A stretch of 64,000 bases of DNA from an uncultured Bacilli bacterium (lineage in GTDB: Bacteria > Bacillota_I > Bacilli_A > RF39 > UBA660). The stretch is from positions 26,990-90,989 of the forward strand of contig CAKOPC010000002.1 in the NCBI GenBank assembly GCA_934098705.1, read 5' to 3'. Under the pieces are notes generated by a model that was not told the origin of the DNA, ran no database searches, and saw nothing but the letters and a program-made list of their open reading frames with translations. Below, in pieces: positions 2,845-63,809 of this stretch; positions within the stretch are counted from its first letter, which is position 1, and each line of letters opens with the position of its first letter. Made by a program: the position numbers and the translations under genes.

Positions 2845-4857
2845 TTACTCTCCTATCTCATTTTCATTTTTATATTTCTCATCCTTATTAAAGTAATCAT
2901 ATACAACAATACTATTAGAAATATCAAGTATTTCATCAGTGTATTCTTTACACGACTTTATATAATCTTCTTTAATAGGAACATCTTCTAACAACTTATA
3001 CTCATTTTTACTATCATTATAATATACCTTATCTGTTATAAAATTACCATTTGGAAAAGCAACTATACTTTCATTTTTAGAAAATAAATCACTTCCAAGA
3101 GCATATGGATTATTAAATCCCAGCATATTTAAGATAGTAGGAGAAATATCAATCATACCCGATACTCTAGATATTACCTCACTATAATTTTTCTTAAAAT
3201 CCTCATCTTTAGAATATATTATAAAAGGCACTCTTCTATTAATTTCATACCAGTAATAATCAATATTTTTATATCTTTCATCATATTCCTCAAAAACGTC
3301 TTCTGTCTCATAGTTATAGTTATAATAATAATTCCACTCATCCTTTTCAATTCTTGCATCATGATCTCCATAAATTATTATAACTGTATTATCAAGTATT
3401 CCTTCCTTATCAAGCATATCAATAAACATACCAATTTGTTTATCTGCATAATGTGCTGATTTAAAGTAATTACCAAGTTTAGTCCCCTCAAGATATGGAT
3501 ATGTAATACCATCAACAGTTAAAGTAACAGGAAAGTCGCCATACTTATCAGTATCTTCAAAAGGAGTATGATTACTTAACGTAATTATTGTACCATAAAA
3601 ATTAGTATTTGTTAAAGAGATTTCTTTAATTTTTTTAACAGCTTGAGAAAGAAAAGATTTATCACTCAGTCCAAAACCTATTTTTTCATCTATAACAAAA
3701 GAGTTTTTATCATAAAACTTTTGATAACCTAAAGATTTATACATATTATTTCTATTCCAAAACTCTCCCGTATTAGCATGCATAGAAAAAGTATAATATC
3801 CATTTTCGTTAAGTATTTTATACATTGAATTGTAACTTCTATTAGCATAATTTATAAAAGCTGTACCAATTTTAACAGGCATCATAGAAGTAGCAACTAA
3901 AAACTCTGTATCACTTGATGTTCCAATACTAACTTGTGAATAAAAATTATTAAAGAAAATACCATCACTTGCAAGTTTTTTTAAATTAGGAGTAACATCT
4001 TTTCCATTAAAATTTGCCTCCATAGCAAGTGTTTGCATACTTTCAGCATGAATTGCTATAACATTTTTACCCTTAAATATATTAGAATATTTATTTTTAG
4101 AAGTCGTATTACCTTTATATTTATAATAATTATCTATCTTTTTATTAGCCTTATCACTACCAAAAAGTGGTGCAACATTTGGAGAAATACTTGTTACAAT
4201 ATCATTTAACTGATAAAGATAAACTCCAAATTTAGTAACTGAATATTCCCTATTCCACTGATTATAAAATCTACCATAATCAACTAAATCAAGTCCCAAA
4301 ATAAGTAATAAAAGAGAAACAGCAAAATTAATATAATTAATCTGTATACATCTTTTTTTAGGTAATAAAGTATCTATTTTTTTATCATTTATTTTTGATT
4401 TTAATAACTTTTTATTATTTGGTATATTCTTATGAAAAACAAACATAAATATAGGAAACCATAAAAGTATAAAGTATGAAGGACGTAAAAGATTACCAAC
4501 AACATTAGCATCACCAGTTTCAGTATTTGTAAAAGCAAATGAGGCAAATGTTACTGATATAAAGCTATCATAATAACTATAATATACAATATTAGCAATA
4601 CCAATTATAGAAAATATAATAGTTAAAGTATAAATATATTTAAATCTATTTTTAGGTTTTATAACAAAATATAATCCACTAAAAAGGAAAATAGCAATTA
4701 AATCCCCAAATATTGGAGATAAACTAAATATATTTTTAACAGTTAACATCCTAACAATTATTTCATTTATTAAACATCCAAATATAAAACAAGTAAGTAA
4801 TTTTTCATCTTTCATTAACTTTAATAAATCATTAAAATATTCCTTTATCTTTTTCAT
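2845..4857 (-). CDS. LtaS-family sulfatase-domain protein (lipoteichoic acid synthase / phosphoglycerol transferase-like)
   Basis: 670 aa. N-terminal polytopic segment (~5 TM helices) followed by a large extracytoplasmic alkaline-phosphatase-superfamily domain (VIAIHAESMQ..., GDHD near the C-terminal part), the architecture typical of LtaS. Confidence 0.7.
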   Translation of the reverse strand: MKKIKEYFNDLLKLMKDEKLLTCFIFGCLINEIIVRMLTVKNIFSLSPIFGDLIAIFLFSGLYFVIKPKNRFKYIYTLTIIFSIIGIANIVYYSYYDSFISVTFASFAFTNTETGDANVVGNLLRPSYFILLWFPIFMFVFHKNIPNNKKLLKSKINDKKIDTLLPKKRCIQINYINFAVSLLLLILGLDLVDYGRFYNQWNREYSVTKFGVYLYQLNDIVTSISPNVAPLFGSDKANKKIDNYYKYKGNTTSKNKYSNIFKGKNVIAIHAESMQTLAMEANFNGKDVTPNLKKLASDGIFFNNFYSQVSIGTSSDTEFLVATSMMPVKIGTAFINYANRSYNSMYKILNENGYYTFSMHANTGEFWNRNNMYKSLGYQKFYDKNSFVIDEKIGFGLSDKSFLSQAVKKIKEISLTNTNFYGTIITLSNHTPFEDTDKYGDFPVTLTVDGITYPYLEGTKLGNYFKSAHYADKQIGMFIDMLDKEGILDNTVIIIYGDHDARIEKDEWNYYYNYNYETEDVFEEYDERYKNIDYYWYEINRRVPFIIYSKDEDFKKNYSEVISRVSGMIDISPTILNMLGFNNPYALGSDLFSKNESIVAFPNGNFITDKVYYNDSKNEYKLLEDVPIKEDYIKSCKEYTDEILDISNSIVVYDYFNKDEKYKNENEIGE

Positions 4858-5663
4858 AACTTCTTCTCCTTACCAAGGTTATATTTATTAATATTTATAG
4901 CCATACCTACAACAAAAAGATAAGCAATTAAATAAATCCACAAAAGAAGTATTAAAATATTAGCAAAATTACCATACAAAACATTATATTTAGCAATATT
5001 TGTTATATAAAATGAAAATATCTCTGTTGCTATAACCCAGCTTACTGTTGTAAAAATAGCACCAAGTGTTGTTTCTTCACTTTTTATTTCCTTACTAGGA
5101 GCCATTGTATACAAAAGTTTAATAGCTAAATAAATAAAAGTAAATGTTACAATAACCTTTATAAATTTTATAATACCAAGATAATTTTGAATATTAATAT
5201 ATTTTGTTAAATAATTTAATATAACATTACCAAGAATTGGAATAAATATCATAAATACAAGTAAAGTTATTAAAACAAAAGTCATAAATAAGGACTTTAA
5301 AGTTATTCTTAATACACTATTCTCTTTTATTTTATATAAATTATTAGAAGTTATTATAATTGATTTAGGTCCATTAATAGCCATAAAGAAATAGGCAAAA
5401 AAGAAAAATATTGCACTATTTCCATAAGATGAAGTACAAAATGGAATAATTATAGAAGCTAAGTTATCAGGAAGGTATGTATATATAAGATTAGTAAGAT
5501 TAAAACTTTCAATAAAATGAGATACTATAATAGCACAAATAGCAAGTATTGGCACAAAAGACATTATAATATAAAATGCTAATTGTCCTGGCAATACTTG
5601 CATCTCTGGCAACATAATAATTTTTTTAAATTCTTTATATATTCTTTTTATTTCACTTTTCAT
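4854..5663 (-). CDS. YihY/BrkB family polytopic membrane protein
   Basis: 269 aa, ~6 TM helices; N-terminal region MQVLPGQLAFYIIMSFVPIL resembles the YihY (misnamed RNase BN) family; 4-bp overlap with the downstream gene. Confidence 0.6.
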   Translation of the reverse strand: MKSEIKRIYKEFKKIIMLPEMQVLPGQLAFYIIMSFVPILAICAIIVSHFIESFNLTNLIYTYLPDNLASIIIPFCTSSYGNSAIFFFFAYFFMAINGPKSIIITSNNLYKIKENSVLRITLKSLFMTFVLITLLVFMIFIPILGNVILNYLTKYINIQNYLGIIKFIKVIVTFTFIYLAIKLLYTMAPSKEIKSEETTLGAIFTTVSWVIATEIFSFYITNIAKYNVLYGNFANILILLLWIYLIAYLFVVGMAININKYNLGKEKKL

Positions 5664-45645: not shown

Positions 45646-45719
45646 ATGGCAGGGGCAGTAGGAATCGAACCCACATCAGCGGTTTTGGAGACCGTTATTC
45701 TACCGTTATACTATGCCCC
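45646..45719 (-). tRNA. tRNA-Trp (anticodon CCA)
   Basis: Minus-strand sequence AGGGGCAUAGUAUAACGGUAGAAUAACGGUCUCCAAAACCGCUGAUGUGGGUUCGAUUCCUACUGCCCCUGCCA. 7-bp acceptor stem (AGGGGCA/UGCCCCU), U8, T-arm GUGGG-UUCGAUU-CCUAC, anticodon loop CUCCAAA, encoded 3' CCA. Confidence 0.85.
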
Positions 45720-45805
45720 TAAAAACATGTTACAAGATAATTTTATATTAAAACTTCTAAAAAATCAAGAGATTACATAAAATTTATTATAATAATGGAG
45801 GTATT

Positions 45806-46256: not shown

Positions 46257-47645
46257 TTATTCAGGTATTATTAAAATTTGTCCTATAGAAAGTTCATTAC
46301 TTGTTAAATTGTTAACGGTTTTAAGTTTGTCAACAGTTGTATTATTCTTTTTAGCAATGCTCCATAAACTATCGCCACTTACTACCTCATAAGTTTCATA
46401 ATTTTCTGTTTTTGGAATAAGAAGTTTTTGATTTATTGTTAACATATTATCAGTCAAATTGTTATACTCCTTTAGCTCTCCAACAGTTATATTGTATTTT
46501 TTAGCTATAGACCATAAACTATCACCTGTTTTTACAATATAAGTTATTTCATCATCTAATGAGTCATCTGCTGGTTTTGGAATTAAAAGTTTTTGGCCTA
46601 TACTTAATACATTGCTTGTAAGATTATTAGCATTCTTTATTTCATCAACTGTTAAACCGTTTTTTAAAGCAATGCTATACAAACTATCACCTTTTTGGAC
46701 TACATATATACCATCATCTACTGTATCTTTTTTTGGAATTAGTAGTTGTTGATTTATAGATAATGCTGTTGTACCAAGTTTATTTAATTTTATAATGTCA
46801 TCAACATCAACTGAGAATTGTTTTGCGATTTTATATAGGCTATCGCCTTTTTGAACTGTATATACTAAAAAATCTGTAATTTCTGTATCTTCTTCCTGAG
46901 TAGGTATTTTAAGTGTTTGTCCTATTTGAAGTAGGTTACTTGATAAATTATTTGCTGTTATAAGGTCATTTACTGAAACATTAAATTTATTAGCAATACT
47001 CCATAAACTATCGCCCTTTTGGACTACATAAACATTGCCACTACCTTTAGGTGGTGTATAATTATACCCAGCATACTCTGCTATAGCTTTTACTGCAGCT
47101 TCAACATAATCTAAATTGTGTTTTTTTAATTGTTCTACATCATCACCTTTGGAATCTAAAAAACCATACTCAATTAAAATAGTTTCAATGTCCCCAGTAT
47201 CACGCATAATGTAATAGTAATCTTTGGATGGATCACTTGGAAGTCTTCTTTGATAGTACTTTCTTGTGTTTTGACCTGCTCTGCCAATATTTTCCAGTAC
47301 TGATTTAGCAAGTTTATCATTATTTCTTAAAGCATAAATTACTTCAGCACCATCGCCACCCCCAGCATTTAAGTGATTAGACACCACAATAACATCTTTA
47401 CTATTACCATAAGCATTACGCATCCTCTTTATCCTATCTTCTCTTGACAAATCCTCATCATAACTTCTAGTTAAAGTTGTAGGTATCCCAAGTTCCTTAA
47501 ATCTATTATACATATATAAAGAATTATTTAAATTGTAATCCTTTTCAACAATACCATTACCACTTGCACCAGCATCACTTCCACCATGTCCCGCATCAAC
47601 AACAATACCCTTTGCTTTTCTTAAATAATCATTCATGTATATCAC
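46257..47645 (-). CDS. N-acetylmuramoyl-L-alanine amidase (Amidase_3) with five C-terminal LysM repeats
   Basis: 462 aa. N-terminal MurNAc-LAA domain (GIVVDAGHGGSD...GN), then five ~45-aa LysM repeats (Y.V.KGDSL..IA.K..V....L...N.L....L..GQ.L.IP). Confidence 0.85.
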   Translation of the reverse strand: MIYMNDYLRKAKGIVVDAGHGGSDAGASGNGIVEKDYNLNNSLYMYNRFKELGIPTTLTRSYDEDLSREDRIKRMRNAYGNSKDVIVVSNHLNAGGGDGAEVIYALRNNDKLAKSVLENIGRAGQNTRKYYQRRLPSDPSKDYYYIMRDTGDIETILIEYGFLDSKGDDVEQLKKHNLDYVEAAVKAIAEYAGYNYTPPKGSGNVYVVQKGDSLWSIANKFNVSVNDLITANNLSSNLLQIGQTLKIPTQEEDTEITDFLVYTVQKGDSLYKIAKQFSVDVDDIIKLNKLGTTALSINQQLLIPKKDTVDDGIYVVQKGDSLYSIALKNGLTVDEIKNANNLTSNVLSIGQKLLIPKPADDSLDDEITYIVKTGDSLWSIAKKYNITVGELKEYNNLTDNMLTINQKLLIPKTENYETYEVVSGDSLWSIAKKNNTTVDKLKTVNNLTSNELSIGQILIIPE

Positions 47646-48557: not shown

Positions 48558-49577
48558 TTAGTCCATAAAATGTCCAAATTTTGCCAAATCTTCATAACAA
48601 ATATTTCTAAGATTTAAATCCTTAATAATATTCTTAGGTTTACACTCTTCATAAAACTTATCCAAAGTATCAATAACCCCTTTATCCGTTTCAATGTAAA
48701 TTGACACAGGTCTTTCAACACCTATTGCATAAGATATTTGAACCAAACACCAATTATATTCAGGATTATCCCTTAAAATTTCCTTGGCTATACTTCTTGC
48801 CTTATAAGCCCCACTTCTATCAACCTTACTAGGATCCTTACCGGAAAAAGCACCACCTCCGCACTTAGCGAAAGATTGATAACTATCAACAACAATTTTC
48901 CTACCAGTAAGTCCAGCATCTCCTAAAAAGCCCCCAATTAAAAACTTACCCGTTGGATTTATTAAATAATTCAAAACCTTAACACCATACTCCAAACAAA
49001 TATTATCACAAATACCAATAAGTATCTTATCAGTTTCATCTCTTTCCTTTTCAGTATTTTGGTAGCAAATGGTAAAAGTCTTTATATACTCTAACTTATT
49101 ATTTTCATAAAACCCAGTAATTTCAGCCTTACCATCAGATAAAAAACGCTTATCTCTTTTTCTTAATTCATCATAACACTTACTAAATTTTTGTAAAATA
49201 ACCATAGCAACAGGTAAATATTCACAAGTATCACGAGTTGCATATCCAAACATCATGCCATTATCTCCAGCACCCAAAAACTCCTCAGTAACACCTCTTG
49301 CAATATCTGGACTTTGTGTTCCAAGATTATTAATAATTTTATAACTATCATCATAACCAACATCTAAAAGAACCCTTTTAACAATTTTAGAAACATCGAA
49401 AACAGCCTTAGTTGTAACTTCTCCCGTTATAAAAATTTTACCCTTTCCTCCAACTACCTCAACAGCACACCTTGAAGTTTTATCTTGTTTTAAACACTCA
49501 TCTACAATAGCATCACTTATTTGATCACAAACCTTATCAGGATGACCTCTAAATACTATTTCATTACTATATAACAT
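48558..49577 (-). CDS. metK: S-adenosylmethionine synthetase (methionine adenosyltransferase), unusually short form
   Basis: 339 aa. N-terminal GHPDKVCDQISDAIVD, C-terminal GGGAFSGKDPSKVDRSGAYKAR; preceded by a SAM-I riboswitch. Confidence 0.85.
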   Translation of the reverse strand: MLYSNEIVFRGHPDKVCDQISDAIVDECLKQDKTSRCAVEVVGGKGKIFITGEVTTKAVFDVSKIVKRVLLDVGYDDSYKIINNLGTQSPDIARGVTEEFLGAGDNGMMFGYATRDTCEYLPVAMVILQKFSKCYDELRKRDKRFLSDGKAEITGFYENNKLEYIKTFTICYQNTEKERDETDKILIGICDNICLEYGVKVLNYLINPTGKFLIGGFLGDAGLTGRKIVVDSYQSFAKCGGGAFSGKDPSKVDRSGAYKARSIAKEILRDNPEYNWCLVQISYAIGVERPVSIYIETDKGVIDTLDKFYEECKPKNIIKDLNLRNICYEDLAKFGHFMD

Positions 49578-49604: not shown

Positions 49605-49740
49605 AAGAAAACACCCAAGATAACCTTTCTTGAGTGTTAAAAAAAGTTATCTTATTGATCTAGCATTACCACCTAATCAAATAGGTTGGTGCGACTTCAT
49701 AAGGCTAGTCCCTCCATCGCTCTTAATAAGATGTAACTAA
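49605..49740 (-). ncRNA. SAM-I (S-box) riboswitch with intrinsic terminator expression platform
   Basis: Minus-strand leader AUCUUAUUAAGAGCGAUGGAGGGACUAGCCUUAUGAAGUCGCACCAACC...GGUGGUAAUGCUAGAUCAAUAAGAU fits the S-box consensus. P1 is AUCUUAUU / AAUAAGAU. Then a terminator AACACUCAAGA-loop-UCUUGGGUGUU plus U-tract, ~25 nt before the metK RBS. The P1 3' strand can pair with the terminator 5' half as an antiterminator. Confidence 0.8.
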
Positions 49741-52666: not shown

Positions 52667-53440
52667 CTAATATATCTGTTTTTTTATTCTAACTAAAGCA
52701 TTCTTTTCAAGCCTTGATATTTGAGCTTGTGATATACCAAGTTCATTTGAAATTTCCATCTGTGTTTTACCAACAAAATATCTATCTTCCAAAATCTGTC
52801 TTTCCCTACTTGTTAATTTGCTAATTGCCTTAGTAAGTGTCATATGTTCTAAATGATCGTAAGAACTTTTAGGGTCGCTTACTTGATCACATAGATATAT
52901 TGTATCTCCGCCATCATTATAAATTGGTTCAAAAAGACTAACTGGAGGTATTAAAGCTTCAAGTGCATTAATAACTTCCCTTTCCTTTATTTCCAAAATT
53001 TTAGCTATTTCTTCATTTGTTGGTTCCTTCCCATTTTCTAAAGTTAATTTTTCCTTTAATTTAAGTACTTTATACGCTGTATCTTTTACACTTCTTGATA
53101 CTCTAATACTTGTATTATCTCTAATATATCTTTTCACTTCTCCAAGTATCATAGGAACAGCATAAGTTGACAACTTTACATTTAAACTTGGATCAAAATT
53201 ATCTATGGCCTTTACAAGTCCAATACACCCAATTTGAAATAAATCATCCAAATTTTCATTGTAAGTTTTAAAATTTTTCAAAATAGACAAAACAAGTTTT
53301 AAATTTCCATTTATAAGTTCTTCCCTTGCTAATTTATCTCCTTGTTTCATTCTTTTAAACAAAACTTCCATCTCTTCCTGTTTTAAAACTTTTAAACTAC
53401 TTGTATTTATACCAGATATTAAAACTTTATATTTAGACAT
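52667..53440 (-). CDS. sigG: Sporulation sigma factor SigG (forespore-specific sigma-70 family)
   Basis: 257 aa; alignable along its length with Bacillus SigG as recalled: KVLISGINTSSLKVLKQEEM, GDKLAREELINGNLKLVLSIL, DDLFQIGCIGLVKAIDNFD, STYAVPMILGEVKRYIRDN, IRVSRS, PVSLFEPIYNDGGD, GKTQMEISNELGISQAQISRLEK. Confidence 0.85.
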   Translation of the reverse strand: MSKYKVLISGINTSSLKVLKQEEMEVLFKRMKQGDKLAREELINGNLKLVLSILKNFKTYNENLDDLFQIGCIGLVKAIDNFDPSLNVKLSTYAVPMILGEVKRYIRDNTSIRVSRSVKDTAYKVLKLKEKLTLENGKEPTNEEIAKILEIKEREVINALEALIPPVSLFEPIYNDGGDTIYLCDQVSDPKSSYDHLEHMTLTKAISKLTSRERQILEDRYFVGKTQMEISNELGISQAQISRLEKNALVRIKKQIY

Positions 53441-53570
53441 ATTTATATTCCTTTCAACCTTAATAATGAAAAAAGAATATAAATTTTATGCAAAATTAAA
53501 ACATTTTACCATTTTTTATTCAAACTATTAAAATGGCAAAAAATAACAAATCTATAATTTATTAAAAAAA

Positions 53571-54760
53571 AGGTTTAACAAAAACTTTACAAGTATTTAT
53601 TAACCTTCTTTATCTCTTCATTAAGATTACTTTTTAATATATAATCTTTAAATCCATCTTCAATGTATTTTGAAACTAAAAACTTTTTATCATCATTAAT
53701 AGTTATTAATACTGGTGTTTTAAATTTTTTTATAGTTTGTAATTTCTTTAAAGTATCATATCCACTTTGAAGCCCCATCTCATCATCCACTATTATCATG
53801 TCATACTCTTCCCCATTTTTTATCTTCTCTATCGCACCTTTTCCATATAATACCATTGTTACATCTATACCAAGTTTTATTAATTGTTCCTCCATCTGTT
53901 TGGCTTCGTTTAGTTTTTCGTTTACTATTAATATTTTTCTTTTTCCTCTTGTATCTATTTGATTAAAATTTATTTTATCTTTATTTTCTTTTATTTTTTG
54001 GTCTATTATTATTAGGTACTCACTACCTTTATTTATTTCACTTCTTACTATTAATGTTCCTCCAAGTACTTTTATTATCTTATTTGCCATTTCTATTCCA
54101 ACATCTACTTTATCAAGTTTTTTAAAGTCTTCTTGTTCCATATAACTTGCACTTAATATCCTATTTACTTTCTCTATTGTCATACCACATCCTGAATCAC
54201 TTATTGATATTATTAATCTACATACATCATATTTTACTATGGAATTAACTTTTATTTCTATAAAACCTTTTTTTGTCTGCTTTAATGAATTATTTAATAT
54301 ACTAATTAACACTTGCTTTAATTTTACTTTATCACCATAAAGTTTGGCATCTATTAAATCTGTATAATTTGTTCTTAATTCAACATCACCTTGTATCTCT
54401 TCCTTTACTCTTTTTTCTATCTCTTTAAATAATAGTTTTACATCATAAAATCCAAGAGCCAATTTTATATTTGATATATCCATATTTGATATATCAAACA
54501 CATTATTTGCCAGAAGCATTAATTCTTTAGAACTTATATTTACTTGTTTTGCCATTTCTTTTAAGTTATCTTTATTATTTTCACTTATCATAAGATTACT
54601 TATATCTTGAATATTTTTTATTGGTTCCTTAGTTTTTTGTTGTAACTCAAATAATAAATTTAATTTTTCTTCATTTGTCTTTTCAATTAGTTTTCTATTT
54701 TCATTTAACGTTTCAATAACCTTTACATCTGGATTTTCTATTGTATGATACATAATAAAA
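53571..54760. repeat. Large direct repeat, copy 1 (~1.19 kb; 3' two-thirds of the hybrid kinase gene plus 16 bp of 3' flank)
   Basis: Near-identical to 57561..58750 (offset 3990 bp). Identity runs from AGGTTTAACAAAAACTTTACAAG just past the stop to ...CTTTACATCTGGATTTTCTATTGT at the TM/cytoplasmic boundary, with scattered substitutions (roughly 95% by eye). Confidence 0.8.
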
Positions 54761-55386
54761 GCAATAAATATAAGTACTGGATTTATCAAATAATTTAATG
54801 TAGGGTCAATAATCATCACAATAAGTATAGATATACCAAGTATTACAAGTACATAAACTGGAATATATTTTTTACTTTTTATATTTTTATAATTTAAAAG
54901 CACACACACAATTTGTGTAATAAGTCCAAGTCCAAATATAAAATATGTATACATAACAGAAATACCTTTAGATGTCGCAGCACTATTAGGATTTATAGTA
55001 ACTTCAATAGGAAATATTAAAACAACTAAAATACTAAAGATTCCCAAAATATAAAATATATTTTCTATCTGCCTCAATTTATCTTGTTTTTTTAAAGAAA
55101 CATATAAAATATAAAATGTAAATATAAATACCCATAAAAGAAGTCCAATTAAATAAAGTTTATTAAATAATGATACAACAAAAACACTACTTGTAACTTT
55201 TGAACTAACATATATACCAAGTAAAATACCACTGCAAGACATAAATATATTGGCAAGTAAAAACAGTGAATATAGATTATCTTCCATTTTCTTTAATCTC
55301 GGTTTGTTAAAAAACAGTATTGCAACTGCAATTATTACTAATAGTGCATAAAAATTAATACTTAAAAAACCTAAAACATTTTCCAT
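53587..55386 (-). CDS. Polytopic sensor histidine-kinase-like / receiver hybrid protein, copy B (no His at the H-box position)
   Basis: 599 aa. ~7 TM helices, DHp-like helix, HATPase_c (N-box LISILNNSLKQTKKG, G1 ISDSGCG, G2 GIEMANKIIKVLGGTL), C-terminal REC (DMIIVDDEMG ... VLITIND ... DYILKS). The canonical HE.RTP position reads FELQQKTKEP. Confidence 0.7.
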   Translation of the reverse strand: MENVLGFLSINFYALLVIIAVAILFFNKPRLKKMEDNLYSLFLLANIFMSCSGILLGIYVSSKVTSSVFVVSLFNKLYLIGLLLWVFIFTFYILYVSLKKQDKLRQIENIFYILGIFSILVVLIFPIEVTINPNSAATSKGISVMYTYFIFGLGLITQIVCVLLNYKNIKSKKYIPVYVLVILGISILIVMIIDPTLNYLINPVLIFIAFIMYHTIENPDVKVIETLNENRKLIEKTNEEKLNLLFELQQKTKEPIKNIQDISNLMISENNKDNLKEMAKQVNISSKELMLLANNVFDISNMDISNIKLALGFYDVKLLFKEIEKRVKEEIQGDVELRTNYTDLIDAKLYGDKVKLKQVLISILNNSLKQTKKGFIEIKVNSIVKYDVCRLIISISDSGCGMTIEKVNRILSASYMEQEDFKKLDKVDVGIEMANKIIKVLGGTLIVRSEINKGSEYLIIIDQKIKENKDKINFNQIDTRGKRKILIVNEKLNEAKQMEEQLIKLGIDVTMVLYGKGAIEKIKNGEEYDMIIVDDEMGLQSGYDTLKKLQTIKKFKTPVLITINDDKKFLVSKYIEDGFKDYILKSNLNEEIKKVNKYL

Positions 55387-55422
55387 ATAACACTAACCTT
55401 CTTTTTATCCATTTTTATTCTT

Positions 55423-57402
55423 TTATTTTCTTTTTCTAACTAAATCTTTTGTTTCATTTTGATAAATATCTATGGTAGATGTAGAAAGATTTGTTTCCGC
55501 TACAACAACATTAACAATATCATCATCTGTTAAATCATCTTTTCTTAATGAAACAAAATCCATCTTTCCATTTTTAGTTTGTGGAATAGAAGTTCTAAAT
55601 TTAAATTTTGATGGAATTTGTCTTGATGACATATCTTTGTTTGCTAAAATATCATTATAAACAATATCATTAACAACACTTATATAATCTTCATTTTTAT
55701 ACTCATCATTTAAAACAATATGACAAGCTGGCATTAAACCTCTTCTTTTTTCATCAAAATATTCAACAATACATACATATTTAACTTTTTCATTTTTAGC
55801 TATTTCTTTTTCAACTTCATATGGTTTTATTTTATAACCATCAAATCTTGCAAAAGATCTATCTTTTCTTGATTTATGATAGAATTTTCCTTCTTCATCC
55901 ATTTCCACTAAATCTCTTGTTCTAATATATGTCTTTCCATCAAGTTCATATTGTGGAATAATAACATTTTCATCTAAAACACCTTTTGTTACATTATCTC
56001 CAGATACAGCAAGTTCTCCAAAAGTTCTACCATTATGATTTATAGGAACTCTAACAAGTCTATCTTCAATATTTGGGTCAACTAATGTAAAGTCAGTGTG
56101 AGGAAGTGGTATTCCAATACATTCATAATCATTATAAGCACCTTGTGCATAAGAACCGCAACCAAAGAACTCACTCATACCATAACCCTTAGTTACAGTA
56201 CAAGAACTACCATGTTTTCTAAAGAATTTATTTAATTCCTCTTCATCCTTTGCAGTCATAGTATCTCCACCATAAATAGCAACCTTTACACAAGATAAAT
56301 CTTCACCCTCTAAATAATCACAAGTTGTAAGTGAATGTAATAGTGATGGTGAAATCATAATTACATTTGGATGATATTTTTTTATTAAATATCCAAATTC
56401 ACTTATCTCAAACTCTGGAACATCAATGTTATTAGCAAGGCTTGTCAAATTCATTAAATAATTATTATAAGCTCCAAATGGTGCAAAAAATGGTAAAACA
56501 TGAAGTGCTGTATCACCCTCATCAAAATTTACAAGTCCTTGTTTTAACTGTTCTAATGTTGATATAGCATTTTTATGTGTTCCAGGTATTGGTTTTGGTC
56601 TTGTACCACTTGTACCTGATGTATGTCCTATATATTGTAAACCATCTAAATTTCTATAAACAGTAAAACGTGAATTTTGAACGTTTCTTTTTAAATCATC
56701 ATAAAACATTATATTTAGTTTTGAAGAAGCCATAGCATCATTTAAAGTACCCTCTTGTTGTTTCATCATTTGCACTTTTTCAAGTAATGCTTGATACCAT
56801 TTTAACTTATTAATATTATCTAAAACATGTCTTTTATTTTTTAAATCATTATAATTAATGACATCTTTCATATAACTAATTTTTCCACCAAGATTCATAG
56901 AATCAGTAGCTCTTAAAAGAACAACATCACGTATTCCATATGATAAAAGTTCTTCTTCTACTGGTTTTATCATCGCCATATAACACATATCAAGAGCAAC
57001 TATATATTTTGGATGTTCAAATTTTACTATTTCAAGTAACTTATTTCCATTAGCTTTAGCATCCATACTATCTGGTCTTGGATCGATAAAATCAGATACT
57101 GCTCCAATTTGAGCAGAACCAAGCCATAATTCTCCTACTTCTGGAATATTTGGAACTAAATATAAAATTCTATCTCCAACTCCAACACCCATTTCAGTAA
57201 GTACTCTAGATGCTTTATCAGCATTATAAAATAATTCTCCATAAGAAGTTTCCTTGCCATAATAAGTTTCTGCTGTTAAATCTTTCTTATTTCTTGCTAT
57301 ATTTTCTAAATATTTTTTAATGTTTAAATCAACATAATTTTGTCTTTCTATTGGATAATTTTTATAAAAATTCATCCAAGGCATATTTTCATTTTTATTC
57401 AT
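55423..57402 (-). CDS. Adenylate-forming enzyme (AMP-binding / ANL superfamily), copy B
   Basis: 659 aa. AMP-binding core motif YIGHTSGTSGTRPKPIPGTHKN (T[SG]GT.G.PK), a second Gly-rich motif, C-terminal domain; substrate unknown. Confidence 0.75.
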   Translation of the reverse strand: MNKNENMPWMNFYKNYPIERQNYVDLNIKKYLENIARNKKDLTAETYYGKETSYGELFYNADKASRVLTEMGVGVGDRILYLVPNIPEVGELWLGSAQIGAVSDFIDPRPDSMDAKANGNKLLEIVKFEHPKYIVALDMCYMAMIKPVEEELLSYGIRDVVLLRATDSMNLGGKISYMKDVINYNDLKNKRHVLDNINKLKWYQALLEKVQMMKQQEGTLNDAMASSKLNIMFYDDLKRNVQNSRFTVYRNLDGLQYIGHTSGTSGTRPKPIPGTHKNAISTLEQLKQGLVNFDEGDTALHVLPFFAPFGAYNNYLMNLTSLANNIDVPEFEISEFGYLIKKYHPNVIMISPSLLHSLTTCDYLEGEDLSCVKVAIYGGDTMTAKDEEELNKFFRKHGSSCTVTKGYGMSEFFGCGSYAQGAYNDYECIGIPLPHTDFTLVDPNIEDRLVRVPINHNGRTFGELAVSGDNVTKGVLDENVIIPQYELDGKTYIRTRDLVEMDEEGKFYHKSRKDRSFARFDGYKIKPYEVEKEIAKNEKVKYVCIVEYFDEKRRGLMPACHIVLNDEYKNEDYISVVNDIVYNDILANKDMSSRQIPSKFKFRTSIPQTKNGKMDFVSLRKDDLTDDDIVNVVVAETNLSTSTIDIYQNETKDLVRKRK

Positions 57403-57474
57403 AAAACAACCACCTCTAATAAAAAATTTTGTCTGTTAGTATATCACAATTTTATAATAAATTATAAAACATGG

Positions 57475-57512
57475 CATATTCGGTTAAAATAGCACCATAT
57501 TCTGCAAATATA
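57475..57512. promoter_or_regulatory. Doubled operator-like motif upstream of adenylate-forming enzyme gene B
   Basis: GCATATTCGGTTAAAATA (57474-57491) and CCATATTCTGCAAATATA (57495-57512), 21 bp centre-to-centre, 73-110 bp upstream of the ATG at 57402. Matches the motif pair at 61459-61498. Confidence 0.45.
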
Positions 57513-57560
57513 CCCCTCTTTTTTCTATAAATAATATATCATATAAAATAAAAAAAAGAA

Positions 57561-58750
57561 AGGTTTAACAAAAACTTTACAAGTATTTATTAACCTTCTT
57601 TATCTCTTCATTAAGATTACTTTTTAATATATAATCTTTAAATCCATCTTCAATGTATTTTGAAACTAAAAACTTTTTATCATCATTAATAGTTATTAAT
57701 ACTGGTGTTTTAAATTTTTTTATAGTTTGTAATTTCTTTAAAGTATCATATCCACTTTGAAGCCCCATCTCATCATCCACTATTATCATGTCATACTCTT
57801 CCCCATTTTTTATCTTCTCTATCGCACCTTTTCCATATAATACCATTGTTACATCTATACCAAGTTTTATTAATTGTTCCTCCATCTGTTTGGCTTCGTT
57901 TAGTTTTTCGTTTACTATTAATATTTTTCTTTTTCCTCTTGTATCTATTTGATTAAAATTTATTTTATCTTTATTTTCTTTTATTTTTTGGTCTATTATT
58001 ATTAGGTACTCACTACCTTTATTTATTTCACTTCTTACTATTAATGTTCCTCCAAGTACTTTTATTATCTTATTTGCCATTTCTATTCCAACATCTACTT
58101 TATCAAGTTTTTTAAAGTCTTCTTGTTCCATATAACTTGCACTTAATATTCTATTTACTTCCTCTACTCCAATACCACATCCTGAATCACTTATTGATAT
58201 TATTAATCTACATACATCATATTTTACTATAGAGTTTACCTTTATTTCTATAAAACCCTTTTTAGTTTGTTTTAATGAATTATTTAATATACTAATTAAT
58301 ACTTGTTTTAATTTTACTTTATCGCCATAAAGCTTGGCATCTATTAAATCTGTATAATTAGTCCTTAACTCAACATCACCTTTTATCTCTTCCTGTACTC
58401 TTTTTTCTATTTCTTTAAATAATAGTTTTACATCATAAAATCCAAGAGCTAACTTTATATTTGATATATCCATATTTGATATATCAAATACATTATTTGA
58501 TAAAAGCATTAATTCTTTAGAACTTGTATTTACCTGTTTTGCCATTTCTTTTAATTTCTCTTTATTATTTTCATTTAACATAAGATTACTTATATCTTGA
58601 ATATTTTTTATTGGTTCTTTAGTTTTCTGTTGTAACTCAAATAATATATTTAGCTTTTCTTCATTTGTTTTATCAATTAGTTTTCTATTTTCATTTAATA
58701 TTTCAATAACCTTTACATCTGGATTTTCTATTGTAAAATACATAATAAAT
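57561..58750. repeat. Large direct repeat, copy 2
   Basis: See copy 1. Similarity ends abruptly where the N-terminal sensor-domain coding regions begin. Confidence 0.8.
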
Positions 58751-59364
58751 AAAACAAAAGATTCAGTAACCGTAATCATTGTAAAACCTGGATATATTTT
58801 TTGAATTACTGAAGCAACACCAAGTCCTACAATTAAAACAATAAGTGGTAAATATTTTCTTATTTTTAATGATTTATAATTTTTTGCCATAAAATAAATA
58901 CTTACAACTATAGAAATTAATGAAGCAACATAAGTTGCAACAATAGATGGCCCTTTAGAATACATATATTTATCAATAACTATATTAAGAGGAAGCACAA
59001 TAATTAATACTGAAAAGATAGAGGTGAATATCAAAATATAATTTGAAATTCTTTTTTCATGTATTTCATAGTTTTCATTTCCTAATGAAACACATATTGC
59101 ATATTTTAAAAACAAAGTACAAAAGAAAAGTAAATACAATAAGTAAGACTTATTAACTAATAAATTAAAGAAACTATCTGGATTTGAGTACAAACCATTA
59201 TAAATACATAAAAGTTCAATTAAAAGTCCAAATATATTTAAACTAAGAAGATTATTAAATATATTAAGTTCGTAAGAATCAATGTGTTTCTTTTTCTTAT
59301 ACATAAATGTCAAAACAATAATGTATAAAAGACTCATAATTAAAAAGTGAGAACTATTATTCAT
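57577..59364 (-). CDS. Polytopic sensor histidine-kinase-like / receiver hybrid protein, copy A (no His in the DHp region)
   Basis: 595 aa. Divergent N-terminal 6-7 TM sensor region; from FTIENPDVKV onward nearly identical to copy B, with the last ~230 aa identical. The only His of copy B's linker (HTIENP) is Phe here. Confidence 0.7.
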   Translation of the reverse strand: MNNSSHFLIMSLLYIIVLTFMYKKKKHIDSYELNIFNNLLSLNIFGLLIELLCIYNGLYSNPDSFFNLLVNKSYLLYLLFFCTLFLKYAICVSLGNENYEIHEKRISNYILIFTSIFSVLIIVLPLNIVIDKYMYSKGPSIVATYVASLISIVVSIYFMAKNYKSLKIRKYLPLIVLIVGLGVASVIQKIYPGFTMITVTESFVLFIMYFTIENPDVKVIEILNENRKLIDKTNEEKLNILFELQQKTKEPIKNIQDISNLMLNENNKEKLKEMAKQVNTSSKELMLLSNNVFDISNMDISNIKLALGFYDVKLLFKEIEKRVQEEIKGDVELRTNYTDLIDAKLYGDKVKLKQVLISILNNSLKQTKKGFIEIKVNSIVKYDVCRLIISISDSGCGIGVEEVNRILSASYMEQEDFKKLDKVDVGIEMANKIIKVLGGTLIVRSEINKGSEYLIIIDQKIKENKDKINFNQIDTRGKRKILIVNEKLNEAKQMEEQLIKLGIDVTMVLYGKGAIEKIKNGEEYDMIIVDDEMGLQSGYDTLKKLQTIKKFKTPVLITINDDKKFLVSKYIEDGFKDYILKSNLNEEIKKVNKYL

Positions 59365-59425: not shown

Positions 59426-61390
59426 TTATTTCGTTAAGATTCTCTTCATTTCTTTTTTATCTTTATTATTTTTTAAATCTTCGTAAGAATTATAAACATC
59501 TCTTGCTAAAACACACTTATTAGAAATACCTTCCTCAATTAAAGCTAAAAAGCTTCTTTTTAGAGTTGGAGATATAACAAATGATTCTTTATTATCTCTT
59601 ACTCTAAAATATAATTTATCTAAAACATCTGCTCCAAAAGCTTTAACACATCTATTTAATGCTGAATATAAAACTTTATCTTTATCAAATGAAACATTAA
59701 TTTGTGGTTCAATATGAGCTACATATTTTACATTACCATTATCATTTACAGTTACAACTTCACAAGACATAATCTTTTTAGTATCTTTTAAAATTTCATT
59801 AGCTATTTTATAATTTGGAATATTTCCATCTCTATTACTTATTCTACCCTTTACATAAATATGTGAAAACTTATCAATATAACCATATACATTTAAGTTA
59901 GCCCAAGTTTTTCCATAAGCATCTTTAATAAAGAACGCCTTATCTCCTTCTTTATTATTTACATAACCTTCCATAGTACATGGTGAATTAGCAACAAGAT
60001 TACCTGGTTCCATAAAATCACAATATGTACCATCTTTCCTTAAGGCTTTTATATTAACCATTCCATATGTTGACATACCAACAGGTTCTTTTATACCAAA
60101 ATTTTTAAATAATTTAGTCTGCAAAGCTCTATACATTGTAATAAAAATACCACCATGCTCAGAGTCCCCCCCTGCTATACTCATACATACAACAGATGTT
60201 GGAAGTTTTATAATATCACGTCCTGCATCAAGACTTCTAAGCCATTTATTTAGTACTTTTTCTTCATTTGCATCAAGACCTTCACCAATACACATAGGGC
60301 ATATTAAAAACGGAAGTTTAATATTTTTATATCTAGGATCCCACATTTGTTTTTTCATATTATAAATAAATACTGATCTTGAAGTTAAAAATACATTAGG
60401 TTTATTAATTAAAAGTGATTCGAATATAAAATCTTTATCGTTTATAGGTTCAAGAGCAACTATACCACTTTGCATAGCAACATCACTTACTCCAGACATA
60501 AAATCAGTATCAGACATTGTTCTAACTAAAGATAACATAACCATACCCTTCATAGATGGTATTTTAGATATTTCACTATCATGATATCTTCCCATAGTAA
60601 TATAACTTCTTACTCTATGAACTAATCCTTTTGGTTTATTTGAAATAGTAGAACCACTTGTATAAGTTGTTGTAAAGTCGCTATCAAGTGTTGTTACATC
60701 ATAAATTTCTCCCTTTACATTATCACCCTTAGTCAAAAATTCATCAAATGACATAATATTATCAAATGAAGATAAAGTATCATTATAAGATTTTTCATCC
60801 AATTTATAAAATTTATCAGTTATTTGAGCATATGGATTGCCATTTTTTAATGAATGATTAAGTGGAATAGGAATTATTGTTTTAGGAACCTCTAACATCT
60901 TTAACGTTTCACTAAATGAAACAAAATTCTTATCACTTACAAATATTAAATTAGATGTTGCATTATCAACAATATTTTTTAAATATTCATGATCCATATC
61001 TGCTGCTAAAAGATTAACTCTAGCACCAATTATACTTGCAGCACCCATTATAAATGGAAATTCAGGTGTATTTTCAAGACAACATACAATTTCCTCTCCC
61101 TTTTTTACACCATTTGCCTTCAATGCTTTAGCATACTTATATGAATAAGCAAAAAAATCTTTATAAGAAAAATTAGTACCTCTATATTTTATATAAGGTG
61201 CCTCCAAATTATTTTTATTTCTTTCCCATACTTCTTTAATCCAAGACCAATTATGATTTTCATCAATATCTTTTAATATTTTTTGATTTTTCTTATTACA
61301 ATCACTACTATCATAATAATTATTATTTGGCATGCTCTTAACTTTTTCTATTTCTAAAACAAAATTTTTAAACAATTCTTCATTTTTCAT
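59426..61390 (-). CDS. Adenylate-forming enzyme (AMP-binding / ANL superfamily), copy A (divergent paralog of 55423..57402)
   Basis: 654 aa. AMP-binding core motif YTSGSTISNKPKGLVHRV; similar length and domain order to copy B but strongly diverged in sequence. Confidence 0.7.
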   Translation of the reverse strand: MKNEELFKNFVLEIEKVKSMPNNNYYDSSDCNKKNQKILKDIDENHNWSWIKEVWERNKNNLEAPYIKYRGTNFSYKDFFAYSYKYAKALKANGVKKGEEIVCCLENTPEFPFIMGAASIIGARVNLLAADMDHEYLKNIVDNATSNLIFVSDKNFVSFSETLKMLEVPKTIIPIPLNHSLKNGNPYAQITDKFYKLDEKSYNDTLSSFDNIMSFDEFLTKGDNVKGEIYDVTTLDSDFTTTYTSGSTISNKPKGLVHRVRSYITMGRYHDSEISKIPSMKGMVMLSLVRTMSDTDFMSGVSDVAMQSGIVALEPINDKDFIFESLLINKPNVFLTSRSVFIYNMKKQMWDPRYKNIKLPFLICPMCIGEGLDANEEKVLNKWLRSLDAGRDIIKLPTSVVCMSIAGGDSEHGGIFITMYRALQTKLFKNFGIKEPVGMSTYGMVNIKALRKDGTYCDFMEPGNLVANSPCTMEGYVNNKEGDKAFFIKDAYGKTWANLNVYGYIDKFSHIYVKGRISNRDGNIPNYKIANEILKDTKKIMSCEVVTVNDNGNVKYVAHIEPQINVSFDKDKVLYSALNRCVKAFGADVLDKLYFRVRDNKESFVISPTLKRSFLALIEEGISNKCVLARDVYNSYEDLKNNKDKKEMKRILTK

Positions 61391-61458
61391 ACATTATTCC
61401 CCCTTAACAAAAGTTAACTGCTATTATAACACTTTAATAAAAAAATTTCAAATTAAAG

Positions 61459-62529: not shown

Positions 62530-63143
62530 TTATGGCATATAGTATGTTTTTGTTCCACTTTTAAGATCAAATATTATAGAACCATACTTACTTGTTTCAA
62601 AATATGTTAAATTAAGCTTATTTAAACTATCAATAGTTTCCTTTGAAGGATGATTATATTTATTATTAAAAGATGCAGATATGATGGAATATTTAGGATT
62701 TGTTACCCTTAAAAAATCATAAGAACTACTCGTATTTGAACCATGATGTGCTAACTTTAAAATATATAAAGAAGATAAATCATAATTATTAATTAAATCC
62801 TCTTCAACACTTTTAGGTATATCCCCAGTAAATAGCATCTTTTTATTATACATATTTAAATATAAAACAATACTTGATGAGTTTTCATCATTATTATTTT
62901 TATTCAAACTATATAATTTTATACCATTAAAATCAATTATATTACCTTTATATAATTTTTTAACTGGTATTTTTTTAAACTTGATGCCTTAATAAGTTTA
63001 TTTTCCAAATAATTTAGCTTATTACTGTTAATATATATGTTATCTATTTTAAAATTATTAACCAAATAAATACTATCTCCCATATGATCATAATCTCCAT
63101 GTAGTTGTTGTAAAAAAGTAAGTCGAATAAAAAGAACTATCAA
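62530..63143 (-). pseudogene. Remnant of a ComEC/Rec2-type metallo-beta-lactamase domain, split into two ORFs and lacking the N-terminal channel domain
   Basis: ORF 63143..62937 carries LHGDYDHMGD (HxHxDH). ORF 62907..62530, in a different frame, carries MLFTGDI ... KLAHHGSNTSSS ... NKYNHPSKETI, typical of the ComEC C-terminal MBL domain. An A7/T7 homopolymer at 62961-62967 lies in ORF 1 (63143..62937), ~25 nt before its stop, i.e. upstream of the frame break on the minus strand. Confidence 0.5.
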
Positions 63144-63161
63144 AGCTGATAATTCCTATTT

Positions 63162-63809
63162 CTATAATTTTTTATTTTTTTGTGATTGTTTGACTGTTTC
63201 AAATATGTGATTTGCATCTTGCTTTAACAAATCTGGATTCTTAACGTATTCTAACAATTTTTCTTTAGAATAATTTTCTAGCATGTATTTTCCTAAAGTA
63301 TATGAGTAACTATACCCGTTTTCTGTTCCATTAAAATCACTTTTTAATTTTTCAAAATCACAATATTCTAAACTAACTGGTGAATAATCTTGATTACTTA
63401 GATTAGTTGCCAATGCTTCCCAATACCAACTAACACCCTTAGAATTTTCATTCCACTCTTGCTGACATGAATGCACAAACTCATGTAGTATGCATTTTAT
63501 AAATTCTTCCATATCCATATCTTCATGTTCTTTAGATTTTCTTGCTTCAGACATTTCTAACAAGTTAATATTACCATCATATGTATCAGCACACATCCAT
63601 TCTTTAAATTCTTTTACAAATGGCAACAAATGTTTCTTGTATTTTTCTCTATCAGTAAAAATCACTACTTTCTTTTTTTGAGAAAGTTTTTCAAGTTCAA
63701 AAAATTCTAAAATTTCAATGGTATTGTTTTCTAATGTTGAAATTATATTTGACATATAATCAATCTCTTTGTCATATTCAATAGTAAAATTACTAAGTTC
63801 GATTTTCAT
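63162..63809 (-). CDS. Hypothetical protein with HExxH zinc-metallopeptidase-like motif
   Basis: 215 aa; ILHEFVHSCQQEW ... WEALA suggests a gluzincin-type HExxH...E arrangement; no further family assignment possible. Confidence 0.4.
   Translation of the reverse strand: MKIELSNFTIEYDKEIDYMSNIISTLENNTIEILEFFELEKLSQKKKVVIFTDREKYKKHLLPFVKEFKEWMCADTYDGNINLLEMSEARKSKEHEDMDMEEFIKCILHEFVHSCQQEWNENSKGVSWYWEALATNLSNQDYSPVSLEYCDFEKLKSDFNGTENGYSYSYTLGKYMLENYSKEKLLEYVKNPDLLKQDANHIFETVKQSQKNKKL

Follow-up and report, generated by a model that had tools for sequence, protein, structure and literature searches.

Concerted evolution, probably by gene conversion, of the signalling cores of two diverged ligase/sensor modules in an uncultured Bacilli bacterium

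The locus and the closest described systems

Domain shuffling in lineage-specific expansions of histidine kinases was described by Alm et al. in 2006 (PMC1630713), who inferred it from domain architectures and made no mention of gene conversion. The recent paralogues in those expansions have a common kinase domain and different N-terminal sensory regions, which is also the situation at the locus described here, in DNA of an uncultured Bacilli bacterium (contig CAKOPC010000002.1, positions 26,990 to 90,989; we refer to this whole stretch of 64,000 nucleotides (nt) as the window). The locus encodes two histidine kinase-like (HK-like) proteins, A and B, each with a predicted seven-transmembrane (7TM) sensor, and two ligases, C and D. 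We consider it quite probable that gene conversion has repeatedly copied the cytoplasmic core between these two anciently diverged ligase/7TM-sensor modules, such that the cores have evolved in concert. The locus differs from the earlier cases in that the process is visible at the nucleotide level, with nested tracts of different age, in that a 5' breakpoint anchored to a sequence motif recurs, and in that the exchanged unit includes the upstream enzyme gene. As in concerted evolution elsewhere, core paralogues within a genome were closer to one another than orthologues between species. Gene conversion between tandem paralogues is a process ordinary in kind; a search of the literature yielded nothing directly comparable on gene conversion among histidine-kinase paralogues, and in the papers searched no description was found of the A/B family or of motif-anchored recurrent tracts.

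In ComQXP of Bacillus subtilis (PMC4008528), as in the locus, a conserved cytoplasmic kinase part is combined with a membrane-sensor part that varies in step with a modifying or processing enzyme. The locus also resembles pherotype systems in that relatives of this organism carry different cassettes at the same position. The agr locus of staphylococci shows the same co-variation of enzyme and sensor with a conserved kinase part. Unlike ComQXP and agr, however, the modules described here are tandem paralogues in one genome and not only alleles between strains, and the enzyme is an adenylate-forming (ANL) ligase. In addition, no plausible same-strand small open reading frame (ORF) that could be a signal-peptide gene was found in the intergenic regions of the locus, no Hpt or response-regulator gene is present in the locus, and the core is without the phosphorylatable histidine (phospho-His).

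In the Xanthomonas Rpf system of diffusible signal factor (DSF) signalling, the fatty acyl-CoA ligase RpfB is found with RpfC, a hybrid kinase with multiple transmembrane (TM) helices that senses a fatty-acid signal (PMC7205486; 10.1101/2022.01.03.474871). The likeness is at the superfamily level, an acyl-CoA-ligase-type enzyme with a polytopic-membrane hybrid sensor kinase, and Rpf serves as a precedent for the sensing of a carboxylic or fatty acid that is also turned over by the ligase. RpfC is a canonical kinase. By contrast, A and B have no phospho-His and neither an Hpt domain nor a nearby Hpt gene, and no RpfF-type synthase or RpfG-type regulator was conserved nearby in the 83 loci of the family that were compared.

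A DHp-CA fold with no phosphorylatable His is also found in the pseudokinases DivL (PMC4211667), RetS (PDB 6dk7/6dk8) and PsmA of Streptomyces (PMC12963549). A and B differ from these in the replacement of His by Gln, in having a 7TM sensor and a receiver, and in belonging to a large family that mixes canonical and His-less members. DivL and RetS were among the Foldseek matches to the model, and Foldseek with the full-length model returned generic kinase cores only. The A/B sensor is predicted by the models to be a seven-helix bundle with a topology like that of G protein-coupled receptors, and the direct fusion of such a membrane sensor to a kinase core has a parallel in the LytS-type BtsS (PMC10653868). 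Taken as a whole, the family is a large, uncharacterised group of receptors from poorly known uncultured gut bacteria, most members of which have lost the phospho-His. The 7TMR-DISM proteins are another bacterial class of 7TM receptors that may be fused to a kinase core.

Two-component paralogues are usually thought to diverge at the DHp/receiver interfaces, keeping pathways insulated. The opposite is seen here, as the core that bears these interfaces is kept alike while the sensor and its partner enzyme diversify, and this pattern recurs across the family. The data described below provide nucleotide-level evidence, consistent with homologous recombination, of sensor modules being re-paired with output modules.

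Structure and divergence of the repeat

The genes of the locus, in their order along the coding strand, are as follows.

59426–61390, minus strand: ligase D, a divergent ANL protein of 654 residues (aa) with an AMP-binding match, partner of B
57577–59364, minus strand: HK-like B, 595 aa, with an architecture like that of A and another sensor type (~30% identical to that of A)
55423–57402, minus strand: ligase C, an ANL protein of 659 aa with an AMP-binding match, partner of A
53587–55386, minus strand: HK-like A, 599 aa, with a predicted 7TM region (aa 1–214), DHp with Gln250, HATPase_c and receiver, as judged from Pfam, NCBIfam, motifs and AlphaFold2 models
52667–53440, minus strand: SigF/SigG-family sigma gene, directly after the array

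Self-comparison of the window at an offset of 3990 showed 53564–54759 and 57554–58749 to be 96% identical over 1196 nt, and this pair was the only long repeat in the 64-kb window. The original prediction, made from the sequence alone, had placed the repeat at 53571–54760 and 57561–58750 and had it run 16 nt past the stop codons of A and B. The repeat is real, with its ends displaced from those positions by 7 nt and 1 nt, respectively, and it does extend beyond the stop codons, by 18 perfectly matching nt common to both copies or 23 nt if one mismatch is allowed. That prediction had not recognised that the repeat consists of two tiers, which are listed here with the other features of the core.

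53564–54759, minus strand: repeat copy 1, the cytoplasmic core of A (end of TM7, DHp, CA and receiver) and 23 nt of 3' flank, from the offset identity profile, mismatch list and repeat search
57554–58749, minus strand: repeat copy 2, the same part of B and 23 nt of 3' flank
53569–54159, minus strand: tier 1 in copy 1 (partner 57559–58149), comprising the C-terminal third of CA, the linker, the receiver and 18 nt past the stop codon
54160–54759, minus strand: tier 2 in copy 1 (partner 58150–58749), comprising DHp and the N-terminal two thirds of CA
54160–54181, minus strand: patch of six differences at the tier boundary (partner 58150–58171), MTIEK in A and IGVEE in B
54727–54744, minus strand: TIENPD junction motif of A (B copy 58717–58734), invariant in family alignments

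Tier 1 is 591 nt long and has 0 mismatches, whereas tier 2 has 47 mismatches in 600 nt (92.2% identity), 31 of which are at third codon positions. In windows of 50 nt, identity at the offset of 3990 was at a background of ~0.2–0.5 up to 53549 and again beyond ~54759, was 1.0 for 53600–54149 and ranged from 0.88 to 0.96 for 54150–54749. At the 3' limit of the repeat, 53564–53567 match, 53568 is a single mismatch and the match is perfect from 53569; from 54760 up, there is no in-register identity between A and B. Such a repeat cannot have arisen by chance, and with the 47 differences distributed evenly over 1191 nt, a particular block of 591 nt would be free of them with P ~1e-14. The edge between the tiers lies inside the CA domain, just past the G1 box, and looks like the mechanical end of a tract and not like a domain boundary.

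The synonymous (dS) and non-synonymous (dN) divergence of A and B was calculated by the Nei-Gojobori method for three blocks of residues.

Residues 1–209, sensor part: dS 0.93, dN 0.78
Residues 210–409, tier 2: dS 0.31, dN 0.039
Residues 410–599, tier 1: dS 0, dN 0

Divergence is therefore not uniform along the genes, and the tracts have sharp edges at 53568/53569, 54159/54160 and 54759/54760. The N-terminal thirds of A and B have 29–34% amino-acid identity and ~50% aligned nucleotide identity, downstream of the junction the two proteins have 96% identity, and identity between ligases C and D is 18–25%, which bears out the earlier statement that the sensor-coding 5' thirds and the neighbouring adenylating-enzyme genes are extensively diverged. 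Also upheld was the placing of the identity boundary at the membrane/cytoplasm junction: the 5' end of the tract in the window (54759/54760) is 12 nt upstream of the codon preceding TIENPD.

One way to account for this contrast is a recent duplication of the ligase/sensor pair, or of the sensor gene, followed by very fast and possibly positively selected divergence of the sensors and ligases while the core was constrained. The cores are indeed constrained, since a dN/dS of 0.13 in tier 2 shows both copies to be under purifying selection, and the sensor domain is, in general, where histidine kinases vary more (PMC1630713, PMC4008528). However, purifying selection acting on the protein cannot hold dS at 0 to 0.31 beside a segment that is saturated at a dS of ~0.9, and the DNA of the core must therefore have a much more recent common ancestry than that of the sensor. 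On the evidence of the sequences, core ancestry is shared in at least two events of different age.

All the sequences analyzed were short-read metagenome assemblies, and we considered whether the second core, or its near-identity to the first, is a product of mis-assembly or repeat collapse. The repeat is a real assembly hazard, as had been predicted: the contigs L083 and L084, from other assemblies, end exactly 18 nt past the stop codon, where the two flanks diverge, and among 147 listed sensor-domain representatives, 29 of the 58 shortened proteins (<520 aa) end no more than 90 aa after the junction motif, a position in which we estimate that ends spread evenly over the 380-aa core would place ~14 of the 58. 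Since the repeat breaks or collapses short-read assemblies, the copy number and variants that metagenome-assembled genomes (MAGs) report at such loci are unreliable without long reads. The exact 100% identity of tier 1 could, likewise, be forced by assembly collapse. The 47 differences of tier 2, in contrast, were reproduced in independent assemblies of different samples, so two physical copies exist. Each copy is also in frame with its own unique sensor, no linear path other than D-B-repeat-C-A-repeat-sigma, we infer, would pass through every unique segment just one time, and the mosaics at 80–93% identity found in other genomes cannot be artefacts of collapse. For the existence of two copies, an artefact is thus excluded, and only the exactness of tier 1 is open to it; as an explanation of the repeat it is very improbable.

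Ancestry of ligases, sensors and cores

A profile scan of species-representative genomes identified 79 loci, nearly all of them in MAGs labelled as uncultured Bacilli, Tenericutes, Mollicutes or "Mycoplasma sp. CAG:611". The highest identity was only 41%, so the species of the window was not itself included; a scan of metagenomes with protein A added a single close partial relative, L090. In the comparison of A with the sensor gene of L008, the ligases were 56% and the sensors 55% identical, and the cores only 28%. The comparison of A with B within the window gave the reverse: 18% for the ligases, 29% for the sensors and 96% for the cores. The closest relatives of ligase C and of the A sensor were concordant (L008, L004, L007, L003, L029 and L027), with identities of 54–56% for the ligase and 44–55% for the sensor, and the cores of these same loci were just 26–36% identical to that of A. 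Similarly, ligase D and the B sensor had relatives in L030, L067, L044 and L079 (ligase 36–40%, sensor 31–39%), with cores 30–36% identical to that of B in L030 and L067. In a nearer relative, the sensor gene that adjoins the radical-SAM gene goes with a ligase of the D type, which has 38.6% identity to D, and its sensor has 38% identity to that of B. The orthologues of C in other species (54–57% identity) sit upstream of A-type sensors and those of D (36–40%) upstream of B-type sensors.

A matrix of nine by nine proteins, in which lineages were assigned from core similarity and a common genome is established for A and B alone, gave the same picture among closer relatives. Core identity was 95–97% within the inferred lineage {A, B, P0004}, 94% within {P0010, P0018} and 89–94% within {P0015, P0019, P0020}, and orthologous cores of different lineages were 57–76% identical. 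The sensors, in contrast, grouped by type, with 54–75% identity among A, P0010, P0015 and P0017 and 74% between P0018 and P0019. The enzyme and the sensor domain thus vary together in the nearest neighbours, in the comparison of orthologues and in the matrix, as well as in the loci L087 and L088 described below. Global covariation of ligase and sensor was weak (Spearman/Mantel 0.14, p 0.01), a result of saturation in most pairs, and only the concordance of nearest neighbours is informative.

That in-genome paralogues are closer than between-genome orthologues in the core segment, and in that segment only, indicates concerted evolution. The original prediction had left two alternatives, recent gene conversion and a very recent partial duplication with rapid divergence of the sensors. 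The three levels of dS, the finding that both ligases and both sensor types are much closer to orthologues in other species than to the paralogue in the same genome, and the grouping of cores by genome and of sensors by type support the first and rule out the second. Between species the core is, moreover, less conserved than the sensor (28% compared to 55% for A and L008), the opposite of what fast sensor divergence above a constrained core would need, and we regard that explanation as the least probable of those considered, to the point of being negligible.

The same mosaic was found in other lineages. Core identity of at least 85% together with sensor identity of at most 55% occurred in 51 pairs of family sequences, which form about five further groups besides this species. 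The DNA-level cases include L051, in which a stretch of 846 identical nt that runs from the junction and ends before the receiver domain is common to two genes 8 kb apart, L037 with ~80–90% DNA identity over the core, L005 compared with L016 at ~93%, and the Y sensor gene of L082 compared with the B gene of L083 at 99% (11 of 1158 nt different). In all of these, identity begins at the end of the last TM helix, beside TIENPD, the commonest coding sequence of which in the family is ACAATAGAAAATCCAGAT.

Based on these observations, we propose that the locus is a tandem array of two modules, each a ligase gene followed by a gene for a 7TM sensor, kinase-like core and receiver, in which non-reciprocal homologous recombination would repeatedly overwrite the cytoplasmic core in one sensor gene with that of the other. 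The whole core of ~1.2 kb would have been involved in an older event, and the 3' 591 nt with ~20 nt of flank in later or ongoing ones. Tracts would stop at the last TM helix since the paralogues are too diverged to pair upstream of the TIENPD-coding sequence, where nucleotide identity is ~50%, and selection against chimeric sensors probably adds to this limit. The modules would then consist of two evolutionary units, a ligase and sensor that are co-inherited and set specificity, and a core that is kept alike within a genome. Identical cores could let differently tuned receptors share one output or heterodimerise, and a shared or heterodimer-compatible output would explain why homogenised cores are tolerated or favoured.

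Variation of the array in close relatives bears on a further explanation, in which the pair was fairly recently duplicated and one ligase and sensor half was then swapped, by one crossover at the sensor/core junction, for a cassette from a further paralogue or from a related genome. In a sister lineage (L082), the D-B region of which is ~96–97% identical, the place of A is taken by Y (P0004), a third sensor type, with a 610-aa ligase. Y has the 3' flank of A, beside the sigma gene, and its core is 99% identical to that of the B of its own lineage. The loci L087 and L088 are 93–95% identical in the flanking ComEC and radical-SAM genes and carry different cassettes at the same position, a C-type ligase with an A-type sensor in one and a D-type ligase with a B-type sensor in the other, with core homology resuming at 88.5%. 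Cassettes are therefore also replaced, plausibly through recombination in the core, and the variable content of the array in close relatives fits the earlier suggestion that the repeat is a substrate for recombination. As an account of the repeat in the window, however, a single replacement predicts a single age, and two were seen (dS 0 and 0.31). There is also no second homology arm, as the sequences upstream of ligase D and upstream of ligase C are without identity, and the tract of L051, by ending before the receiver, is a patch of the conversion type and not a cassette swap. We consider it unlikely that replacement explains the repeat; probably both processes operate, with replacement best viewed as a contributor.

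Several points nevertheless weigh against gene conversion as the source of the shared cores, or limit how far it reaches. A mosaic of this kind also results from a cassette swap by crossover within the core, and not every shared core need be the result of conversion. The D-B-C-A order is also that of independent assemblies from other samples (L001, L002, L085 and L086). Over 8.9 kb, L001 departs from the window only at the six sites of the patch at 58150–58171, where its B copy has the A allele, so that both copies are A-type; in L085 the A copy has the B allele at this patch, so both copies are B-type, and in L085 and L086 strain-specific single-nucleotide polymorphisms (SNPs) in tier 1 are common to both copies. 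These flips and shared SNPs are consistent with ongoing conversion but are not decisive, because they are also expected from a collapsed node and popped bubbles, and a de Bruijn graph whose path passes two times through a 591-nt repeat necessarily yields two identical copies. The true identity of tier 1 may accordingly be slightly under 100%. Lastly, the notion of a pseudokinase core with a shared output draws only on motifs and gene context.

The array of L082 contains a further pair at 3451–5235, a 593-aa ligase and a 594-aa sensor, X, the core of which is 34% identical to that of its neighbour Y, showing that homogenisation does not reach every paralogue of an array. The end of the L088 contig was considered as the possible start of a second repeated core, and this was rejected since the last gene there encodes an unrelated and complete 178-aa acidic protein.

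Motifs and gene context of the locus and family

HK-like A and B gave HATPase_c and Response_reg matches, and no HisKA match, in Pfam and NCBIfam. The HATPase_c match (E 2e-13) includes N366 and D397-x-G-x-G and has a degenerate G2 box (VDVGIEMA). The Response_reg match (E 9e-11) retains D534 and K585, with N489/E490 as the acidic pair and Ile in the Thr column. In the H-box of A, Gln250 lies in FELQQKTKEP where canonical members have SMSHEIRTP.

The sensor-domain profile matched 2296 clusters at 50% identity (E ≤ 0.001), and most full-length members are ~600 aa. Among 204 distinct family sequences, 124, with A and B among them, had Gln as the H-box residue, 44 had His and 22 had Asn. Almost no variation was seen at the N-box Asn or in the G1 box, and the G2 box was degenerate. 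The receiver Asp was kept in 122 sequences, including A and B, and was Lys or Arg in 58; all 44 His-containing members retained it. Genes for Hpt-receiver or receiver proteins came next after 19 of 34 His-containing members and after none of 44 His-less members. Downstream of the His-containing members (L017, L029, L058 and 16 others) there is often a conserved protein of 118 aa that has no Pfam match, together with one or two Hpt-receiver proteins and often a stand-alone receiver. None of these ever follows a His-less member.

The family began as a canonical hybrid-kinase phosphorelay, and in a large branch to which this locus belongs, the phospho-His and the relay partners have been lost under continued purifying selection, which makes the His-containing and His-less members a natural experiment in the loss of a phosphorelay. 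From their motifs, the A and B cores are probably His-less pseudokinases with a mechanism that is independent of phosphotransfer.

The ligase gene was directly upstream and on the same strand in 61 of the 80 family genes with enough upstream DNA, at a median gap of 61 nt, and no neighbour other than the ligase, present at 66 of 83 loci, was widely conserved. PlsC-type acyltransferases are encoded upstream in place of the ligase in two ORF clusters, one of 9 loci and one of 5 (4 of the 5 in the second cluster being upstream). No conserved small neighbour was found among ORFs of at least 100 aa in the 83 loci. Ligases C and D both matched PF00501 (E 2e-38 and 6e-20, respectively). Ligase C has ordinary ANL motifs, and the closest solved structures were 4-coumarate-CoA ligases, DltA and FadD13. 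Ligase D matched solved structures weakly (2-succinylbenzoate-CoA ligase and luciferases; best E 2e-8), carries an insertion in its P-loop motif ("TSGSTISNKPKG") and has no clear PxxxxGK motif near the C-terminus; judging by these motifs, it may be catalytically altered or inactive.

By analogy with RpfB and RpfC, the association with ligases and acyltransferases points to a carboxylic or fatty-acid ligand, which we treat as a lead and not a result. As a tentative and rather doubtful extension, the ligases and 7TM sensors may be interchangeable cassettes, each sensing a carboxylic-acid or lipid ligand that its ligase activates or removes, with one phosphotransfer-independent output through a pseudokinase core that conversion keeps identical for heterodimerisation or a shared partner. 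If this were true, the cassettes would be a paralogous, intragenomic counterpart of pherotype cassettes.

We also considered an anti-sigma role for the core, as in SpoIIAB-like GHKL proteins, by way of the downstream sigma gene. This was not supported, because the adjacency is kept only in near relatives, is interrupted by a glycosyltransferase gene in L087, and has no counterpart in the form of a widely conserved sigma neighbour among the 83 loci. The product of the sigma gene (52667–53440) scored 374.7 with the NCBIfam SigG model NF006071, which has a cut-off of 372, and fell under the cut-off of TIGR02850 (351 against 457). SigG genes usually sit directly downstream of the spoIIGA-sigE pair. 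Here this pair is not directly upstream, and the sensor array is there instead. SleB-like, CwlD-like and SpoVE/FtsW genes lie near the sigma gene, and together these genes suggest a spore-former among the lineages labelled Tenericutes or Bacilli.

The window has a G+C content of 25%. A plasmid search with the 8.9-kb region gave no match; the context is chromosomal. The terminator scan of the locus detected no intrinsic terminator after either HK-like gene. The best promoter-like site, found by consensus scan alone, was the following.

61423–61451, minus strand: TTGAAA-17 nt-TG-TATAAT, 11 of 12 matches, 33 nt upstream of ligase D

From its sequence and position 5' of ligase D, this site is a possible candidate for the promoter of a D-B-C-A operon; promoter-like matches across the region were at the level of shuffled sequence (75, with 76.7 expected).

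The window and L001 have an extra segment of ~2.2 kb between the ComEC and radical-SAM genes (window 62530–63809; L001 1–2900 compared with L086 767–2909), whereas in L086 ComEC directly adjoins the radical-SAM gene. Within the segment are a DUF1016/YhcG-like gene, which lies past the end of the window and encodes 299 aa in L001, and a 215-aa ORF at 63162–63809. A 125-aa remnant of the ComEC C-terminus remains at 62530–62907, and the insertion seems to bring its own replacement for the 3' end of ComEC. DUF1016 genes are found at the same place in L087 and L088, and L088 also has an Abi_2 gene there. The interval between ComEC and radical-SAM looks like a small integration hotspot.

Elsewhere in the window, a SAM riboswitch (49649–49732, minus strand, 63.6 bits) lies upstream of the S-adenosylmethionine synthetase gene at 48558–49577, and there is one tRNA gene (45650–45720, minus strand). 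The amidase gene at 46257–47645 contains four diverged direct repeats of ~130 nt (46263–47031, 62–70% identity), which are its LysM repeats.

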